The translations under genes and the position numbers were made by a program. The notes under the pieces are model-generated. The model made no database searches and was not told the DNA's origin. It saw only the letters and a program-made list of their open reading frames with translations. From the IMG/VR virus record IMGVR_UViG_2713897161_000007: a stretch of 26,780 nucleotides of DNA; one strand, written 5' to 3'. Below, piece by piece: positions 4,596-16,011 of the stretch (positions within the stretch are counted from its first letter, which is position 1; every line of letters starts with the position of its first letter). The DNA is from a virus (taxonomy: Duplodnaviria; Heunggongvirae; Uroviricota; Caudoviricetes).

Positions 4596-4985
4596 ATGAT
4601 TGACGCTCATGACTTCACAAGATGGGTGCGCACACAGGACACCCGTCTGGCTCCCGTTCTTCAGGGATTATTTGATCTCTACATCCGTGGTCGTGACAAC
4701 AGAGCACGCACCACAAAACCGGAGAATGCAGACACCCTTTATTTCACAGTAGACGACTGCTACCGCGTGGACTTCACACCACACGGGCTGGCGTTGCACT
4801 GCCTGACACCACACGGCGAATCACTGCTGGCGTATTACGACTCCCCGGCCTCCATATTTGCGGCAATGCTGGCGCATCGCACTGCTGGCGGGTGTGCCTC
4901 GCTGAGTGAATACTCCGCTGAATTTAACCGCCTTTCCGCCCTCTTCTCACAGGAGTGGCAGCGCGTGACGGGATACCAGCCATGA
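4596..4985 (+). CDS. Hypothetical protein immediately upstream of replication gene A
   Basis: 129-aa ORF; its stop overlaps the A start (ATGA at 4982-4985). Confidence 0.5.
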   Translation: MIDAHDFTRWVRTQDTRLAPVLQGLFDLYIRGRDNRARTTKPENADTLYFTVDDCYRVDFTPHGLALHCLTPHGESLLAYYDSPASIFAAMLAHRTAGGCASLSEYSAEFNRLSALFSQEWQRVTGYQP

Positions 4986-7822
4986 GTGCGTTTGCATGGA
5001 GCTGGAATGAACCACGGCCAGCCATTGATCCGGCCAGATTTACGGAGCGCAGGCAGGAAACTGAAACCGACCTGCAACGCGCCATCCGTTACTACCTTGA
5101 GGCAAACAAAAGGGCACAGGAAGAACAGGAAGCGAAGGAAGAAGCCTTTTTCGCACAATCCACCGTGGGTAAAAAACTCATGGCATCCCTTGAGGAAGCC
5201 GGACAGCGTGAAAAGCTGGCACAAAGCATCATCAGCAAGCGTCAGGCAACAGAACAAGACCCGGTGGCCCGTGCTTTTGCCACACTGAAGGTGCTTCCCG
5301 TTTATCTGCGTGAACCTCTGAGCCGCCACCTCTCTTTTCTGCGCAAGAAGCAGGAAGCCGATCGTCAGAAAGGCAAAAAGAGCTGGCAGGCTGAACGCTA
5401 CGCGCGCGGAACCCTGCGCAAAATATTCGAACGTCTGGACCGCACCGACAGCCGCTGGCTGACACCGGGCTATCGCTCCCTTGCCGGACGCGAACGCCTG
5501 GACGATTTGCTTTACCTGCCGCAGCTCAACAAACACCAGATACAGACGCTGGCCACCATGACGGCGGCGATGTTCAGTGGCACTTTTGAAAAACTCTGCG
5601 ATGGCTTTGGCGCGACCGATGGCGAGCTGACCATGGATGTAACGCTGAAGGCGTATCAGATGCTGGCCCGCATGGCGTTACACCTGCACGCTATGCCTCC
5701 ACATTATGACGCTCTGACAACAGACAAAGACCGGAGGAATGAACCGGACACGGAGCTGCTGCCGGGCGCAATCCTTCGCCTGACCTGTGCGGAATGGTGG
5801 AAACGCAAACTGTGGCTGTTACGTTGCGAGTGGAGAGAAGAACAACTCCGCGCCGCCTGTCTGGTTTCCAGAAAAACATCACCCTATCTGAGCCAGGACG
5901 CGTTAAGCGAGTTTCGCGCACAGCGCGAGAAAACACGCGATTTCCTGAAAAGTTTCATGCTGGAAAACGAAGACGGGTTCACGATTGATCTCGAGACAGT
6001 GTATTACGCGGGAGTAAGTAACCCGATTCACCGTAAGGCAGAAATGATGGCCACCATGAAGGGGCTGGAACTTCTGGCCGAAGCCCGTGGCGACAGAGCG
6101 GTGTTTCTGACTGTCACCTGCCCGTCAAAATACCACGCCACAACAGAGAACGGTCATCCGAATCCCAAATGGAACGGGGCCACCATGCGCGACTCCAGCG
6201 ATTACCTGGTTAACACGTTTTTTGCGGCGGTCCGCAAGAAACTGAACCGCGACGGCCTGCGCTGGTATGGCATCCGCACGGTGGAGCCTCACCATGACGG
6301 CACCGTGCACTGGCATATGATGGTCTTTGCTCATCCGGAAGAAATCGACACCATTGTGTCCCACACCCGCGATATTGCCATTCAGGAAGACCGCCACGAG
6401 CTGGGCAATGATATTACTCCGCGCTTTAAGGTGGAGTATGTCGACGGCTCAAAAGGCACGCCAACCAGCTACATCGCCACCTACATCGGAAAGAACCTGG
6501 ACAGCCGCGCCGTGGATGGCATCGACCCGAAAACGGGCAAGCCACGCGTTGACCACGAAACCGGAAAATCAATGGCCGAGAGCGTGGAACGCGCCATCGG
6601 CTGGGCACGCCTTCACCGGGTCCGCCAGTTCCAGTTCTTTGGCATCCCCTCCCGTCAGGTATGGCGTGAACTCCGCCGCCTTGCCAGCCAGATGGCACGC
6701 AACCCGGAAGGCCCACAACGGCTGAAGGATGATGCAATGGATGCGGTACTCGCTGCCGCTGATGCCGGATGTTTTGCCACCTACATTGAAAAACAGGGTG
6801 GCGTACTTGTTCCGCGCAAGGACTACCTGATTCGCACAGCCTACGACCTCGCAGATGAGCTGAACGATTACGGCGAACAGAGTGTACAGATTTACGGGAT
6901 CTGGTCGCCATTCATCGGGGAATCCTCCCGTGTGTGCACGCATCCGGATAACTGGAAGCTGGTAAGACGTAAACCGGAAGCGGAAGACAGCGCCCGCGAA
7001 AATGGTTTTGACCTTCAGGGCGGCCCTGCCGCCCCTTGGACTCGTGGCAATAACTGTCCCCGTGTACAGGAAACAGGCAACAACGGGACAGAACAGCCGG
7101 AAGAACGGCCAGCACCGTGGCCGCAGCTTCCTGACGGCGTTGAAGTAAATGAATGGATGCGCTCACTGAAACGGCACGAACGCCGGGCGCTGATGCGTTC
7201 GCTTCGTGACAAACAGGCAAAAAACAGCAGCGATGAAATGCAGAACTGGACACAGAGCCGCAAACAGCAGCGGCCTTTGCCTGATAACCACGAGTTACTC
7301 GCTAAAGAATGGCGGGAGTCTGCTGAATCTCTCGGCCTGCATATCGGTGAACAACAGATGCAGCACCTGTTACGGGGCGGCAGTCTGTACGTTGACGGCA
7401 GCATCATTGCACCGCAGGGATTTGAAATTGTACGCAAACCGGATACCCGCCCGGACAGCCGAATCACGCAGCTCTGGCAGCGTCTGAGCCGTAATCATGG
7501 CGTAAGCAGCACGGAGATCCGCCATAACCCGGTCGCCAGCTATCTGGCACAGCTGGGGGCATCAGACCCTGAAGCCGCCGCACGCCTGGCATCCACACTT
7601 CAGCAGGACCAGAACACCATGAAAACACCCGTTACCGTGCTTTCTGACATGCTGCGCGCCATCCGCGACGCAGAGCACGCACAGAGAATCAGTGAAACCA
7701 CTGAACGCGCCAGCCGCAAAGCAGACCTGCTGCGGGGTGGCCTGACCAGTGGAAACAAAAAACAGACAGAAACGGGACTCACGAATCCCGTAAATGAGCA
7801 AAAAACGCGCAGCGATATATGA
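4982..7822 (+). CDS. A: Rolling-circle replication initiator (HUH endonuclease), P2 gene A homologue
   Basis: HUH motif in TVHWHMMVF and paired catalytic tyrosines in YIATYIGK. Position matches P2 A. Start at 4982 or 4955. Confidence 0.85.
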   Translation: MSAFAWSWNEPRPAIDPARFTERRQETETDLQRAIRYYLEANKRAQEEQEAKEEAFFAQSTVGKKLMASLEEAGQREKLAQSIISKRQATEQDPVARAFATLKVLPVYLREPLSRHLSFLRKKQEADRQKGKKSWQAERYARGTLRKIFERLDRTDSRWLTPGYRSLAGRERLDDLLYLPQLNKHQIQTLATMTAAMFSGTFEKLCDGFGATDGELTMDVTLKAYQMLARMALHLHAMPPHYDALTTDKDRRNEPDTELLPGAILRLTCAEWWKRKLWLLRCEWREEQLRAACLVSRKTSPYLSQDALSEFRAQREKTRDFLKSFMLENEDGFTIDLETVYYAGVSNPIHRKAEMMATMKGLELLAEARGDRAVFLTVTCPSKYHATTENGHPNPKWNGATMRDSSDYLVNTFFAAVRKKLNRDGLRWYGIRTVEPHHDGTVHWHMMVFAHPEEIDTIVSHTRDIAIQEDRHELGNDITPRFKVEYVDGSKGTPTSYIATYIGKNLDSRAVDGIDPKTGKPRVDHETGKSMAESVERAIGWARLHRVRQFQFFGIPSRQVWRELRRLASQMARNPEGPQRLKDDAMDAVLAAADAGCFATYIEKQGGVLVPRKDYLIRTAYDLADELNDYGEQSVQIYGIWSPFIGESSRVCTHPDNWKLVRRKPEAEDSARENGFDLQGGPAAPWTRGNNCPRVQETGNNGTEQPEERPAPWPQLPDGVEVNEWMRSLKRHERRALMRSLRDKQAKNSSDEMQNWTQSRKQQRPLPDNHELLAKEWRESAESLGLHIGEQQMQHLLRGGSLYVDGSIIAPQGFEIVRKPDTRPDSRITQLWQRLSRNHGVSSTEIRHNPVASYLAQLGASDPEAAARLASTLQQDQNTMKTPVTVLSDMLRAIRDAEHAQRISETTERASRKADLLRGGLTSGNKKQTETGLTNPVNEQKTRSDI

Positions 7823-7898: not shown

Positions 7899-8858
7899 AT
7901 GAAAATTTACATCGACGACGGCTCCACCAACATCAAGCTGGCATGGACTGAGAACGGCGAACGCCGCAACGCCATCAGCCCGAACAGCTTCAAGTCGGAA
8001 TGGTCTGCGCCGTTCGGTGGCTCGCAGCCTGCTAACTACATGCTTGATGGCGTGCGCTATGGTTTTGATCCGGTCAGCGATCGCTTTGTCCAGACGACCG
8101 ACACGCAATACCAGTACAGCGATGTGAATGTCATTGCCATTCATCACGCGCTGGTCAAATCAGACATCACGCCACAGGAAGTGGATGTGGTTGTTACCCT
8201 GCCACTGAGCGAATATTTCGACACAAACGCACAGCCGGACATGGCCAACATCAACCGCAAAAAAGCGAACGTCATGCGCCCGGTGGAGTACCAGAACGGC
8301 GAAGCATTCACTATCCGTAACGTACGGGTTATGCCTGAATCCATTCCGGCTGGCTTTAAAGCACTGGCTGACATGAGTCCGTTTGAATCCCTGCTGATTG
8401 TGGATTTGGGCGGAACCACGCTGGATGTGGCAAAGGTTCAGGGGCAACTGGCAGGTATCAGCCAGGTGTTTTGCGATCCACACGTAGGCGTTTCTCTTAT
8501 GGCCGATGCCGTACTGTCGGTGATGGCCACTAACGGTATGCGCACCAGTCACCACATCGCCAATACCATTATCGAACATCGCCATAATGAAGCCTGGCTG
8601 CGCCAGCACATCCACAATGACGCGCATTACGCCAGCCTGATGGCGGTTATTCGTGAAAAGGAAGAAACACTGAAACAACGCGTGATCCGCGCGCTGGCGG
8701 TTTTTTCGGGTTACGGGCGGGTGATGGTTGTCGGTGGCGGGGCGGAGATTGTGGCACCCGCTATCCGCGAAGCCTGCGGAGTTAATGCGACTTTCATCGC
8801 GGACGGGGTGCCACAGTTTGCTCTGGTTAATGGGCTGTACGCAATGGACAAGGAGTAA
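7899..8858 (+). CDS. parM: ParM/StbA-family actin-like ATPase
   Basis: 319-aa ORF. N-terminus MKIYIDDGSTNIKLAW...ISPNSFKSEW and YSDVNVIAIHHAL match the plasmid R1 ParM signature. RBS AAGGA 8 nt upstream. Confidence 0.8.
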   Translation: MKIYIDDGSTNIKLAWTENGERRNAISPNSFKSEWSAPFGGSQPANYMLDGVRYGFDPVSDRFVQTTDTQYQYSDVNVIAIHHALVKSDITPQEVDVVVTLPLSEYFDTNAQPDMANINRKKANVMRPVEYQNGEAFTIRNVRVMPESIPAGFKALADMSPFESLLIVDLGGTTLDVAKVQGQLAGISQVFCDPHVGVSLMADAVLSVMATNGMRTSHHIANTIIEHRHNEAWLRQHIHNDAHYASLMAVIREKEETLKQRVIRALAVFSGYGRVMVVGGGAEIVAPAIREACGVNATFIADGVPQFALVNGLYAMDKE

Positions 8859-8862
8859 ACCA

Positions 8863-9174
8863 ATGACGACACCAACCAGACGGATAAGTTTCTATCTGAA
8901 GCCCGCCGCCGTCAAGAACGAAGGAGAAGCATGCGCCTGGCTGGACAGCCTTACACCAGAAGCCCGCAAAAGCGGCCAACGCGTGGCTTTTCTGGCCGGG
9001 CTGGCACTTCTGAAGACGAATCCGGCAGAGGCTTACCGACTGGCCGCATGGGCTGATGATGAGATGTTACCTGTGACACAAATCAGCTCAAAAAAGTTTG
9101 AAGCACAGTCTGCACCAGTGGCTAAGATAACCAGCCAGATGGCTGGGAATATCCGGGCGTTATTTCCTGAGTAA
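8863..9174 (+). CDS. parR: ParR-like ribbon-helix-helix centromere-binding protein
   Basis: 104-aa product from ATG 8863. RISFYLKPA and RVAFLAGLAL resemble R1 ParR (TIAFKLNP, RAALTAGLAL). Directly follows parM. Confidence 0.65.
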   Translation: MTTPTRRISFYLKPAAVKNEGEACAWLDSLTPEARKSGQRVAFLAGLALLKTNPAEAYRLAAWADDEMLPVTQISSKKFEAQSAPVAKITSQMAGNIRALFPE

Positions 9175-9538: not shown

Positions 9539-9808
9539 GTGCGGGCTAAAACAGGTATTTGCAAGAACCCTCATCGTTATAATCCAACATTTCTGTCTCT
9601 CCCTGAATATCAAGGACAAGAAGGTCGGCACAAATGCGCTGCCTGTGCTTTTGAGCTAGGCATAAAAGATGCGCTTGAAGGACGCGCTATGGCTCAGAAT
9701 GATTTAGTTTTAGCTAACATTCCGTTTAGCCAGGCTGGAACTGTAAGGCACAGAGATGCCTATGAAGCATATGTTCGTGGTTGGCGATTAATAAACAGCA
9801 ACAATTGA
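9539..9808 (+). CDS. Hypothetical 89-aa protein with Cys/His cluster (possible zinc-binding), cargo in the A-cos slot
   Basis: GTG start with GAGG RBS 8 nt upstream. C-x3-H and H-x-C-x2-C spacing (ICKNPH...HKCAACAFE). Followed by an intrinsic terminator. Confidence 0.5.
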   Translation: MRAKTGICKNPHRYNPTFLSLPEYQGQEGRHKCAACAFELGIKDALEGRAMAQNDLVLANIPFSQAGTVRHRDAYEAYVRGWRLINSNN

Positions 9809-9816
9809 TACTTTTG

Positions 9817-9840
9817 AAGCGCCGATAAGGCGCTTTTTTT
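9817..9840 (+). terminator. Rho-independent terminator
   Basis: Stem AAGCGCC/GGCGCTT with loop GATA, then TTTTTTT. Confidence 0.6.
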
Positions 9841-10293
9841 GTTTGCACGATAGTGCACAAGTTTGCACAATTTTTTTGAACGACTTTTTGTACTTCCGGC
9901 CCGCGTGGTGGCTGGATCCGTCAAGGATCCGTACGTGCACAAAAAAACGCGTTTTTTCTGCGCGCAGGTGACGGGGGAACAGCCCGCGTTTCAGGGGGTA
10001 AATAGCATCCCCTGAACGATGTCGCAGCGACACAACAGAATGGCTGTATTTCTCACGCTGAGCGTGAAAAAGACGTGAGGGCTTTTGATTTGATGGGTGG
10101 CAGATAAGGCCGTCAAAATCGCACTGAGGCGGCGAGAACATGCAGTCAACGCGGTGGGATTGCGTAAGAGTCTGACCGCCGATGATGACAATAAGCAGAA
10201 AAGCGTCGTGAAATTATCTGATTGATACAGGAGCTGGAGAGTCGGGGCATAAATTTTTTATGCCCCGGCGAAGCAGCAGACAAGCGAAGCGCG

Positions 10294-11340
10294 TCAGGAT
10301 GTGGGCTGGGTATCTAGCAGTGCGTAAGGGTTAAAGCGGATCACCTCTTCGCCAAGCCAGTCATTGATGTGCTTCATGGCCTCCATGACGGGCATCAGCT
10401 CGTTAATTGCGTAAACCCGCGCGGCCTTCTCCACATCACCAAACGCACTTTTTTCGCCCGGCATCGCCCCCATCAGTTGCGGCGGAACGCGGTGCGCAGC
10501 CAGCACATCATCACGGGATGCCGCCTTAACATTCATGAACTCATCCTTTGCAGTGATCTGCTGGAACGGCAAAATTTGCACACCTTCTTTGCCCCCGTTG
10601 GGCGCATGGATGAGTACGTTTTTAAACGCACCACCACCACGCGCGCCCTGTAACGTTTCTTTCAGGGAGTCCATGCTTTCGCGGTTTACCTGCGCTGCAC
10701 CGATGTAGATGATGCACCCGGCGTGGGATCCGTTGTCGTAGTACAGTTTTCTGAACATGTCCGCCGAATGAGAAAGGCTGGCCGAGAGTAATGCGCCAAG
10801 ATATTCCGGCATGCCGTAGATTTCCTGGTTAATATCCGGATTCATCAGGTGGCACACTTTGCCAGGGCGAAACTGGAACGCGTCCTTGCCATCCTGCACA
10901 TACCACCATGATTCAAGATCGCTTCCGCGTCGCATGTATTTCGCCAGGGCGTGCCGTAATTTAAGCGGTTCGCCGAGCATATTGCTTCTAAGCTCAAGGA
11001 ATGCGTTACCGAACACAAACCAGTCCAGCGCCAGCGCCGAGAAATCCTGCCGGGAAAGCAGCGGGTGCGGGATGTAGCAACCGAGTAATACATTGCGCTT
11101 AAAGTAAAGCGCAGACTGATGCCAGGACGTTTGCCGGGCTGCTCTTGCCAGACCGTACCAGTCCACCGGGGTTTCATACCACCGTCCGTTATCAGCACAG
11201 TACATATTGTCCAGCAGGTCATGCCCGGTCAGGCGATAAGGACCATCAAATGTGAATGCACTGAGCGATGATTCTTTCCTGAGCGCATCAGCGAGATCAA
11301 TGCGTGAACTCATGCGCACTTTTTTATTTTTTCTGCTCAT
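10294..11340 (-). CDS. Q: Portal protein, P2 gpQ homologue
   Basis: 348-aa ORF immediately downstream of terminase with overlapping stop/start; size and position match P2 Q. Confidence 0.85.
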   Translation of the reverse strand: MSRKNKKVRMSSRIDLADALRKESSLSAFTFDGPYRLTGHDLLDNMYCADNGRWYETPVDWYGLARAARQTSWHQSALYFKRNVLLGCYIPHPLLSRQDFSALALDWFVFGNAFLELRSNMLGEPLKLRHALAKYMRRGSDLESWWYVQDGKDAFQFRPGKVCHLMNPDINQEIYGMPEYLGALLSASLSHSADMFRKLYYDNGSHAGCIIYIGAAQVNRESMDSLKETLQGARGGGAFKNVLIHAPNGGKEGVQILPFQQITAKDEFMNVKAASRDDVLAAHRVPPQLMGAMPGEKSAFGDVEKAARVYAINELMPVMEAMKHINDWLGEEVIRFNPYALLDTQPTS

Positions 11341-14105: not shown

Positions 14106-14744
14106 ATGAATCTGGTGATGTCAGATATTACCCGCAACAAGCTGGGGTGCTATATGGCGCAGCAGGCGTCGCTTAACAATATCCCGGTATCTGCACTGGT
14201 ATCGCGATTTACCGTGGAACCCGCGGTGCAGCAGCGTTTTGAAAACGCCTCAAAGGAAAGTACCGAATTTACGAAAAGAATTAACGTGATCGGCGTGACC
14301 GACCAGAAAGGCGAAAAAATCCTCCTGGACACCACCGGGCCAATTGCGCGCACGAATAGCAGTTATGACGGCATCAAACGCCGTAAAACGGTTTATGACG
14401 TGGCATCAGGGGACTCGTTATTTATTTCTGAACTCGGTCCATTACCGGAAAATGTTACCTGGTTGTCGCCGTATGGAGAGTATCAGAAGTGGAACGGCAC
14501 ATCCTGGGTGAAAGATGCAGAAGCAGAAAAACTGTTTCGGATAAGGGAGGCGGAAGAAACAAAAAACAGCCTGATGCAGGTAGCCAGCGAGCATATTGCG
14601 CCACTTCAGGATGCCGTAGATTTGGATATTGCAACGGAGGAAGAGGCATCGTTACTGGCTGCATGGAAGACATACCGGGTATTGTTGAATCGTGTTAATA
14701 CAGCGGTAGCAGCGGATGTTGAGTGGCCAGTCGCCCCACAATAA
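14106..14744 (+). CDS. Chimeric ORF: N-terminal ~90 aa of major capsid protein (gpN-like) fused in frame to the C-terminal ~120 aa of a tail fibre assembly protein (Tfa/gpG-like)
   Basis: Residues ~30-90 ([10 protein letters not shown]...[17 protein letters not shown]) match the P2 gpN N-terminus as remembered. Residues 94-212 ([23 protein letters not shown]...[11 protein letters not shown]...EWPVAP) match lambda/P2 Tfa C-termini. Junction near 14370-14385. Confidence 0.7.
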
Positions 14745-14780
14745 AGAGAAAAAGCCATCGATTGAAATATAGATGGCTTT
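14745..14780. terminator. Hairpin between convergent genes; T-rich on the minus strand (terminator for the acetyltransferase gene)
   Basis: Stem AAGCCATC (14752-14759) / GATGGCTT (14772-14779); minus-strand reading is followed by TTTTTCTCTTT. Confidence 0.5.
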
Positions 14781-14787
14781 ATGTACT

Positions 14788-15393
14788 CTATTTATACAAT
14801 ACAACACCGCTCTTTTTAGTTATATATGTGCAGTTCGATGGTATATCTTTATTTATAAAAGACATTGCACCTATTTTTACATTATCCCCAATTTTACGTG
14901 ATAATCCAATGATGCAACAATTAGCTCCGATATCAACGTTACTACCAATTTTTACTCTTGAACCAGGCATGTCACCATCTATCTGTCCAATGGTAGTATT
15001 CTGTCGTAACACCAGATTTTCACCAGCATCAACAGCAAAATGAACAACAATTCCAGCATGATGGGGAATTGTTAACCCTTTTCCAATATTTGCGCCCAAT
15101 CCAATTTCACAACCAAATTTGTTAATTATTTTACTGTTTAACTTTTTGGCTGCTTTCTTATGTAATTTATTACCATTAATATACATTTCGTTAGCCAACC
15201 GCCACCAGAAAAGGAAATTCCGGTTACGCTGTTTTTTCTCTCTTAAAAGCCTCCAGATATCCATACGTTTCCGCCGAATTACTTCATATTTCCAGAAGTT
15301 TTTTAAATTAGTAGAGTCCCCAAATAAAACAAAGTGAATTGCCATTAAGTAAGACAGCACGATAATCTCCTTAATTATTATTTCAGACCACAC
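14788..15393 (-). CDS. Hexapeptide-repeat acetyltransferase, serine O-acetyltransferase (CysE/WcaB-like) family
   Basis: 201-aa ORF with left-handed beta-helix hexapeptide repeats (IGANIGKG, IGSNVDIGAN, IGDNVKIGAM) and a CysE-like segment before them. AT-rich. Start may be GTG at 15360 after AAGGAG. Confidence 0.8.
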   Translation of the reverse strand: MWSEIIIKEIIVLSYLMAIHFVLFGDSTNLKNFWKYEVIRRKRMDIWRLLREKKQRNRNFLFWWRLANEMYINGNKLHKKAAKKLNSKIINKFGCEIGLGANIGKGLTIPHHAGIVVHFAVDAGENLVLRQNTTIGQIDGDMPGSRVKIGSNVDIGANCCIIGLSRKIGDNVKIGAMSFINKDIPSNCTYITKKSGVVLYK

Positions 15394-15516
15394 ATATTAT
15401 AAGGTTAAGAGATTATAAAATCCTGTTGTTTGTTATTCAAAAACAATTTTCTGAGAAGGACATACAACAGCAAGTCGCCAGTCACCTTCATCAGGAAATT
15501 GGCGACATACGTTAAA

Positions 15517-16011
15517 TCAGAGCAGCCCCTTAACTGAGCTGGTCGCGCTATTAAGGGATGATGTCACCTTATCTTTGAAGCCGGACAACATATCGCTGAA
15601 CGATGAGGATTGCAGGCGCTCCCGCAAATCCTCATCACAGCGTTCAAGAGTCAGTGAAAATTCTATCTTTTTCGCCTTACCGTAGCGATCAAACTCGGAG
15701 CGGGTCGTATTCGTTTCGGTCAGGACATACATGCCGTAAATCTGCCCGACGCCATCAATCAGAGGCCAGGGCCGTCCTGTATACGCCTGCGTGGTCAGCA
15801 GAGACAGCGACACTTCGCCACCTGTAATTTCAGGATAAAGCACACCAGAAAGAACGATGCGATCATCACCTGCACCGATATACTGCCAGCTTGCTGAACG
15901 GTTAACGCGTTCATTTTTCACATGCCGCCAGCTTTTGTTTTGCTGTAACTGCTGATGCGGCAGCGTGCGCAGCTCAAAAACAAACATGCCATAGATCATC
16001 ATCATGGCCAT
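15517..16011 (-). CDS. U: Tail protein, P2 gpU homologue
   Basis: 164-aa ORF downstream of the tape measure gene; N-terminus MMMIYGMFVFELRTLPHQQLQ resembles gpU. Hairpin plus T-rich tract follows on the minus strand. Confidence 0.8.
   Translation of the reverse strand: MAMMMIYGMFVFELRTLPHQQLQQNKSWRHVKNERVNRSASWQYIGAGDDRIVLSGVLYPEITGGEVSLSLLTTQAYTGRPWPLIDGVGQIYGMYVLTETNTTRSEFDRYGKAKKIEFSLTLERCDEDLRERLQSSSFSDMLSGFKDKVTSSLNSATSSVKGLL

Follow-up and report, generated by a model that had tools for sequence, protein, structure and literature searches.

The window analyzed here is the whole stretch of 26,780 nucleotides of the IMG/VR virus record IMGVR_UViG_2713897161_000007. It contains a defective P2-like prophage in which a gene for a hexapeptide-repeat acetyltransferase is still intact. 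We tentatively propose, with a probability of about 45%, that this gene acts as an O-acetyltransferase of lipopolysaccharide (LPS), probably of the LPS core, in lysogenic conversion and receptor masking. This reading is favored because the protein is closer to WcaB than to CysE, some relatives are located in LPS loci, two prophage copies are in tandem with GT25 and GT9 glycosyltransferase genes, the gene is coupled to the tail fiber assembly gene (tfa), the family is under selection, and the NeuO enzyme provides a precedent. The gene itself is already in the databases and is abundant there. RefSeq names the product of the identical gene (WP_000954196.1) "serine O-acetyltransferase"; this label is universal, and the papers that name the gene call its role unknown. 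In the literature searched, three points appear to be unreported: that the serine name is unsupported, that the pairing with tfa is deep, and that chromosomal relatives are located in LPS loci.

The AlphaFold model of the protein (pLDDT confidence score 83.8) has five N-terminal helices (approximately residues 1–82) followed by a left-handed beta-helix (LbH). This C-terminal domain and 21 matches to NCBIfam LbH families place the protein in the hexapeptide-repeat superfamily, in agreement with the preliminary description, and the Pfam Hexapep score (23.6 bits) is just under the cutoff of 27. The best NCBIfam match is EpsC (E-value 5e-21), followed by cysE (9e-17) and WcaB (1e-14). The scores are 75.2 bits vs. 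a cutoff of 150 for EpsC (NF041874), 61.5 vs. 210.65 for cysE (TIGR01172), 36.7 vs. 397 for CysE (NF008349), 53.3 vs. 194.65 for WcaB (TIGR04016), and 54.2 vs. 196 for WcaB (NF007564). Weak matches to LacA and Maa were also found.

The C-terminal tail of CysE ends in Ile and docks into CysK, forming the cysteine synthase complex. The protein encoded in the window ends in GVVLYK and has no CysK-binding Ile; the C-termini in the family are variable and were left unaligned. The roles of the other residues were taken from E. coli CysE (PMC9547175). The catalytic Asp143 corresponds to D/E85 in 47 of 47 family members, His158 corresponds to H100 in 46 of 47, and Gln178 of the pocket is conserved as Q120. 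The residues of the serine pocket are different: Asp157 aligns to P99, a position at which no family member has Asp; the residues opposite Arg192 and His193 are S134 and R135, both variable; and nothing corresponds to the Asp92 region. The hallmark of the family consists of the invariant W52, R54, Q120, and N121 and the near-invariant W53 of the WWR motif. Judging by these residues, the protein is an active-looking LbH acetyltransferase and not a serine acetyltransferase. The "serine acetyltransferase" name is unsupported because the pocket residues, the CysK tail, and the curated cutoffs all fail. Thus, the earlier designation of the protein as CysE-like is correct for the fold and incorrect for the function: like CysE, it combines an alpha-helical N-terminal domain with a left-handed beta-helix and keeps the equivalents of Asp143, His158, and Gln178, but its N-terminal domain is much shorter.

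A genuine serine O-acetyltransferase, which as an auxiliary metabolic gene would supply more O-acetylserine and cysteine or induce the CysB regulon, is therefore very improbable. Apart from the RefSeq name and the conserved Q120, it has in its favor that the top PDB matches listed, whether ranked by sequence or by fold, are all structures of the CysE type. Foldseek matches in the PDB only CysE-type structures, with a TM-score of about 0.7 normalized to the query; this comparison cannot tell sugar from serine acceptors, since no WcaB-like structure has been solved. Besides the failures mentioned above, no cys genes were found near family members in the neighborhoods scanned, with the exception of one sulfate permease gene adjoining a Pseudomonas copy (locus L032). 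As a hint of cysteine metabolism, this neighbor was discounted, because that copy is N-terminally truncated.

When the family profile was compared with characterized enzymes using hhalign, the identity with K-12 WcaB was 36% over the beta-helix (E-value 2e-23), and that with CysE was 27% (E-value 3.5e-17). By sequence, WcaB is the closest characterized relative. It shares with the family the H-H/G motif at the catalytic His and the I-R-x-x-x-T-I-G turn, and it lacks the longer N-terminal region with W52 and W53 as well as the Q120–N121 pair. WcaB is encoded chromosomally, inside the wca cluster, unlike the prophage gene considered here. On a neighbor-joining tree, which is crude, has no support values, and does not include the Halomonas and L032 copies, the tested members nest within the family, and WcaB and CysE are outside it. 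The family is narrow: among 1.84 billion representative proteins searched with its profile, just 62 clusters match at E ≤ 1e-30 (7,303 at 1e-10).

The gene neighborhoods of the family were compared for 14 genome loci among the matches listed; 66 others are distant LbH enzymes and were left out. The most telling member is that of Leminorella grimontii, which is 48% identical and has every hallmark residue. It is the last gene of a waa core operon with the order waaP-waaB-waaI/O-waaY-waaZ-acetyltransferase, convergent with rfaL (waaB, waaI/O, waaZ, and rfaL are above the NCBIfam cutoffs; waaP and waaY were assigned from Pfam). At this place, K-12 and Salmonella have waaU/waaK, encoding the enzyme of terminal core decoration. 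The Halopseudomonas member has HldE-like, MsbA-like, and Kdo-kinase-like neighbors. One Pseudomonas member lies between a GT2 glycosyltransferase gene and WbpA/WbpB-like genes in an O-antigen-like cluster. According to Pfam domains, the Intestinirhabdus member is convergent with genes resembling ugd and the arn operon. The Halomonas member, a copy without the N-terminal WWR region, is located between a WaaZ-like gene and an Ugd-like fragment. Apart from this copy, the chromosomal members named here have the hallmark residues and group with the family on the tree. In a Xenorhabdus prophage, the acetyltransferase gene is in tandem with a GT25 gene of the LPS-core type, and in a Morganella prophage, with a GT9 heptosyltransferase-like gene, in both cases next to the tail fiber. 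The informative neighborhoods are all LPS-related, and they span a handful of lineages. The surface-polysaccharide modification put forward in the preliminary description has thus gained specific support, as a putative function, from the members in LPS loci, the GT25 and GT9 tandems, and the tfa pairing.

Another envelope glycan (colanic acid, enterobacterial common antigen, an O-unit, or capsule) might be acetylated instead, on an undecaprenyl-linked intermediate, with a similar conversion of the surface. The relationship to WcaB points in this direction, as do the name "colanic acid biosynthesis acetyltransferase" given to one RefSeq plasmid copy and the O-antigen-like cluster around the Pseudomonas member. 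However, the scores of 53–54 bits are far from the WcaB cutoffs of 195–196, the contexts in Enterobacterales indicate core or lipid A loci (waa, arn, GT9, GT25), and the carrier strains differ widely in their O antigens. We consider this explanation quite unlikely.

A small-molecule acceptor, such as a toxin, antibiotic, metabolite, or signal, would imply detoxification or an unconventional function against phages or competitors. LbH enzymes do include detoxifiers of the LacA, Maa, Vat, and CatB types, to two of which the protein has the weak matches mentioned above, and the gene is found as a solitary gene on very diverse mobile elements, including conjugative plasmids and islands. The P2 hotspot also has known defense cargo (bioRxiv 10.1101/2024.10.15.618418, PMC13586616). 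On the other hand, the protein is nearer to WcaB and CysE than to the xenobiotic acetyltransferase group, there is no partner effector gene, no resistance-gene annotation was found on the plasmid copies inspected, and the informative neighborhoods are all LPS-related. A scan against PADLOC-DB 2.0 revealed no defense family at E ≤ 1, which agrees with the earlier remark that no phage-defense system of this type has been described. This explanation is unlikely.

The coupling to tail fiber genes was analyzed in the 80 best viral contigs. In 69 of them, a convergent tfa gene follows the stop codon of the acetyltransferase gene, at distances from a few nucleotides to about 100 nt and, in a single case, 1.1 kb; four further loci run off the end of the contig. 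The pairing is retained at protein identities as low as 45% and next to four kinds of upstream neighbor: gpU (44 loci), a second tfa of a P1-like C segment (11), the sheath gene FI (5), and hok (1). The remaining loci have no reference match within 1.2 kb upstream, a more distant fiber gene, or the contig end. In the Citrobacter phage phiNP, the gene follows dinI and hicAB and converges with tfa and the fiber gene (dinI-hicAB-gene → ← tfa ← fiber). In JL22 (L014), it lies within a cin-invertible C segment of the P1 type, bracketed by 602-nt inverted repeats (4797–5398 and 9659–10260) that are 99% complementary. Since the JL22 gene (approximately 7089–7661) occupies the unique center of the segment, between tfa and the alternative U'/S' genes, it flips together with the host-range switch. 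The identity of the acetyltransferases correlates with that of the adjacent Tfa proteins (Spearman coefficient 0.90, uncorrected for shared descent), which is evidence of co-inheritance and not necessarily of co-function.

Such tight and deep pairing across phage types would also be expected of an enzyme that modifies the tail fiber, Tfa, or another phage component during assembly. A role in the virion is nevertheless most unlikely: the gene has its own predicted sigma-70 promoter and is convergent with the late genes, it is kept in prophages no longer able to make virions, and it is abundant on non-phage plasmids and present in chromosomal LPS operons. We also know of no LbH protein acetyltransferase of this type.

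The family is widespread. Near-identical DNA was found in 531 of 5,426 complete E. coli genomes (about 10%), including EDL933, TW14359, O104:H4 2011C-3493, and Shiga toxin-producing strains of serotypes O26, O111, and O103. The cluster of the query protein contains 1,530 member sequences. Relatives are encoded by P1-like phage-plasmids and 284 IMG/VR viral contigs; homologues at E ≤ 1e-8 are present in 18 phage records, including phiNP and Hafnia phage yong2, and P2 is not among them. There are also relatives on 437 plasmids, mostly conjugative, on the bfp (EAF) plasmids of enteropathogenic E. coli (EPEC), on a Salmonella island, and on a Pseudomonas plasmid. The three IncI-complex plasmids inspected (IncI1/B/O and IncK2/Z) have the fixed order repA, a toxin–antitoxin pair, acetyltransferase, and ProQ/FinO. 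In R64, the reference IncI1 plasmid, the first 12 kb downstream of repA contain ars, transposon, and insertion sequence (IS) genes, and the annotation lists no member of the family there. The copies of the EAF plasmids (L007–L011, gene at 6001–6594) have Arg in place of the near-invariant catalytic His100 (P-R-H instead of P-H-H), and IncI1 copies near-identical to them keep His100. Judging by this substitution, the active site of the EAF copy may be impaired or shifted.

All 13 copies measured are full-length open reading frames (ORFs) and AT-rich; the GC content is 0.33–0.41 for copies from enteric bacteria and 0.48 for the one on the Pseudomonas plasmid. The ratio of non-synonymous to synonymous substitutions (dN/dS) is 0.07–0.19 for the unsaturated pairs among diverged alleles, and by this measure the family is under purifying selection. 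Two decayed prophages, that of the window and CP-933T of EDL933, have kept an intact copy; in CP-933T, the tape-measure gene T is frameshifted, an IS3 element is inserted, and the acetyltransferase gene is annotated as intact. A silent hitch-hiker, i.e., an AT-rich foreign remnant without function that is held by its linkage to the tail fiber cassette, is suggested by the composition and the location in a recombination hotspot. It is scarcely credible given the dN/dS values, the full-length copies, the intact EDL933 copy, the conserved catalytic residues, and the size of the cluster.

The proposed LPS O-acetyltransferase would work as follows. In the lysogen, the sigma-70 promoter of the cassette would drive its transcription. 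The enzyme made would be a cytoplasmic, probably trimeric LbH O-acetyltransferase of the WcaB/CysE clade, presumably using acetyl-CoA as the donor, like its family. As the gene neighborhoods suggest, the acceptor would be an LPS sugar, most likely of the outer or inner core oligosaccharide, and the core would be acetylated during its assembly on lipid A, while still on the cytoplasmic side of the inner membrane and ahead of the outward flip by MsbA. Many fibers of the P1, P2, Mu, and T-even types read the LPS core. The acetyl group might alter the LPS surface read by tail fibers, so that the receptor is masked or changed. The result would be lysogenic conversion and superinfection exclusion directed against phages with the co-travelling tail fiber cassette. 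The diversity of O serotypes among the carrier strains speaks against an acceptor tied to one O antigen but is no proof of the core as acceptor. The carrier serotypes O157, O26, O111, and O103 are of the R3 core type; a correlation of the gene with this type is a lead only.

Several points weigh against this proposal. The literature searched contains no experiment on a member of the family, and we know of no description of an O-acetylated core in E. coli. Of the 14 genome loci, ten are solitary genes in uninformative surroundings (nine of them were scanned), and the hundreds of copies on IncI-complex and EAF plasmids adjoin no LPS or adhesin gene. The tfa coupling may simply reflect linkage within a recombination hotspot. 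The associated fiber tip is of the lambda-Stf/T-even type, whose known receptors are LPS and also proteins such as OmpC.

A wider version of the proposal, which we consider doubtful, is a mobile module for O-acetylation of the LPS core that is matched to the tail fiber/Tfa cassette. In it, the receptor-binding genes and the masking enzyme would move together among P2-, P1-, and lambda-like and other phages, and the copies on IncI-complex plasmids would likewise serve LPS-dependent recognition of mating pairs. If this were the case, an undescribed O-acetylated LPS core would exist in O157, O26, O111, O103, and O104:H4 pathogens, and a general rule would tie host-range cassettes to self-exclusion.

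The closest mechanistic precedent, by analogy, is NeuO of prophage CUS-3 in E. coli K1. This LbH polysialic-acid O-acetyltransferase modifies the K1 capsule, the surface glycan that serves K1 phages as a receptor, and thereby gives protection against them (PMC3046976, PMC13001214). Both are single prophage genes, and the product predicted here would likewise be a cytoplasmic acetyl-CoA-dependent LbH O-acetyltransferase. Unlike NeuO, it belongs to another LbH subfamily, with no NeuO structure among the PDB matches listed, which in the profile search are 60 of 63, and its family contexts indicate LPS, whereas the acceptor of NeuO is the capsule. NeuO also has phase-variable heptanucleotide repeats. 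Tandem Repeats Finder revealed no tandem repeat at positions 14600–15600 of the window, and phase variation of the NeuO type was rejected on this basis.

Receptor-blocking genes located beside receptor-binding genes are known from T5 (llp beside pb5) and from phi80, N15, and HK022 (cor beside tail fiber genes). As with these, the gene of the window is small and probably expressed separately, and it co-travels with a receptor-binding module; this is an analogy only. The products of llp and cor are lipoproteins that bind protein receptors (FhuA), whereas the product considered here would be a glycan-altering enzyme. Of the family members described earlier, the JL22 copy was named "sacF" with the reason for its presence unknown (PMC9603915), and ORF4 of phiNP was listed as a "fitness" gene (PMC6456863).

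If the LPS core is acetylated, the database name "serine acetyltransferase" is wrong. A cryptic mobile modification of LPS in these pathogens may then affect phage susceptibility, which matters for phage therapy and typing, and serum or antibody recognition and possibly plasmid mating might be affected as well. The tfa pairing would in this case offer an easy way of recognizing receptor-masking genes in genomes. If LPS is unaffected, this would still be an abundant, conserved gene of mobile elements without a known role.

The gene belongs to a self-contained cassette of about 770 bp, a moron with its own predicted promoter, gene, and terminator (Table 1). Homology to siblings without the gene breaks off at approximately 14728–14737 on the tfa side and 15510–15516 on the U side. 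The length of the module follows from these two borders, and positions 14745–15516, given earlier for the element, therefore correspond to the inserted module. The cassette is of foreign composition and is absent from siblings with 95–97%-identical U. The earlier description of the gene as strongly AT-rich is borne out by a GC content of 0.346 and a GC content at third codon positions (GC3) of 0.298, compared with 0.50–0.57 and 0.53–0.61 in the flanking phage genes.

Table 1. Features of the acetyltransferase cassette, its flanking genes, and other cargo of the prophage (window coordinates).
Feature	Position	Strand	Basis and remarks
LbH acetyltransferase coding sequence, 190 aa	14788..15360	−	ORF and RefSeq WP_000954196.1; start codon GTG at 15360, backed by AAGGAG and the JL22 orthologue
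Shine–Dalgarno sequence AAGGAG	15367..15372	−	Read from the sequence; 6 nt upstream of GTG
Predicted sigma-70-type promoter TTGAAT-17 nt-TATAAT	15412..15440	−	Agrees with the consensus at 10 of 12 positions; start codon about 50 nt downstream
Predicted terminator hairpin, 9-bp stem AAAGCCAUC/GAUGGCUUU	14751..14780	−	Followed by a U-run to about 14745
Hairpin 7 nt past the gpU stop codon	15474..15506	−	Folding energy −18.7 kcal/mol, z −4.9; inside the inserted module
Fusion ORF: N-terminus of capsid protein N and C-terminal 121 residues of tail fiber assembly protein G	14106..14744	+	Pfam: Phage_cap_P2 (residues 15–93), Caudo_TAP (residues 92–212)
Tail gene U	15517..16011	−	Pfam Phage_P2_GpU (5.5e-39) and annotation of L001; upstream neighbor on the same strand
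ParM (StbA) and StbB-like plasmid-partition genes	7899..9174	+	
Unassigned ORF of 117 aa	9788..10141	−	
AT-rich cargo gene, 379 aa	22750..23889	+	GC content 0.41; N-terminal SEC-C motif

The ORF listing extends the frame of the gene to 15393, and the RefSeq call for the identical gene gives 190 aa; the JL22 orthologue has ATG at the codon equivalent to GTG. The predicted promoter is identical in a P2-like prophage (L102) with a 70%-identical acetyltransferase. Upstream regions can be aligned only between two P2-like alleles sharing the U neighbor, and a single promoter conserved across contexts was ruled out, as the upstream DNA differs from context to context. The terminator ascribed to the gene in the preliminary description was recovered as a predicted hairpin on the minus strand (−14.1 kcal/mol, z −4.5, with none of 200 shuffles as stable). 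On the plus strand, the same hairpin (−14.0 kcal/mol, z −3.9) stands directly after the tfa stop codon. The minus-strand hairpin is absent from the list of a consensus scan. The hairpin past gpU probably terminates transcription of the tail operon ahead of the moron promoter.

The gene is indeed situated between a remnant of tail fiber assembly and the tail genes, the neighbors being the N–G fusion on the left and gpU on the right. The tfa of the window is P2 gene G, and the 3' end of the fusion ORF is convergent with the acetyltransferase gene. The in-frame fusion marks a deletion of 11,371 bp, as determined from coordinate offsets vs. the intact prophage L001 (E. coli E2865), and because of this deletion the prophage is unable to make virions. 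The exact junction was not found among the listed complete E. coli genomes, the best matches covering query positions 84–1601 only. In L001, the order is H G → ← acetyltransferase ← U ← T ← E ← FII ← FI, followed by D →, a YecA-family gene, ogr, and hok. Thus, the tail block FI-FII-E-T-U is inverted in this lineage relative to P2, with gpU as its last gene and the tape-measure gene next beyond U. Because of this inversion, the gene is located at the convergent G|U junction and not at G–FI.

The placement in a slot equivalent to Z/fun of P2 therefore applies in part. In P2-like prophages of canonical order, a homologue with 65% identity occupies precisely the Z/fun position between G and FI, and the same placement was found in five viral contigs, whereas the neighbor in the window is U in an inverted tail block. 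The Z/fun locus has been described as a mixed-purpose hotspot that also swaps tail fiber genes and invertases (bioRxiv 10.1101/2024.10.15.618418). Like its cargo, the cassette is a variable insert of foreign composition after gene G; unlike it, the cassette has U and not FI on the right and shows no sign of anti-phage activity. The papers on P2 hotspots and the iLund4u preprint mention no acetyltransferase. Among the siblings with 95–97%-identical U, NU14 and RM13514 have at this place an invertible alternative tail fiber/tfa cassette with a serine-recombinase invertase (L114, 2511–4978, and L115, 2345–4978, respectively), which replaces the acetyltransferase gene and is in opposite orientations in the two genomes. 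A24 has a tfa fragment only.

Other cargo can be noted in the same prophage and its relatives. The second AT-rich gene of the window is located between tail gene D and ogr; its counterpart in the intact relative is named "YecA family protein". The ParM/StbB-like genes, accompanied by the 117-aa ORF, occupy the classical P2 defense hotspot, which is bordered by replication gene A and portal gene Q and contains no recognizable defense system in the window. The ParM/StbB-like pair is also found in CP-933T of EDL933. The P2-like prophages with the 70%-identical acetyltransferase (L102–L104) encode a class-I S-adenosylmethionine-dependent methyltransferase (5937–6605, plus strand), without an NCBIfam match, between a tfa fragment and a full tfa, adjoining the acetyltransferase gene.

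Toxin–antitoxin genes recur upstream of the acetyltransferase gene. The hicAB pair is located directly upstream in the unrelated prophages phiNP (L201, 643–1835) and Morganella (L198, 4068–7194), and a RelE/ParE-type or YacAB pair is found there on IncI-complex plasmids. The Salmonella island (L012/L013) is bounded by an integrase and contains a MazE/PIN toxin–antitoxin pair. It also encodes a different hexapeptide-repeat protein of 208 aa (10333–10959, minus strand), 4 kb from the family member.

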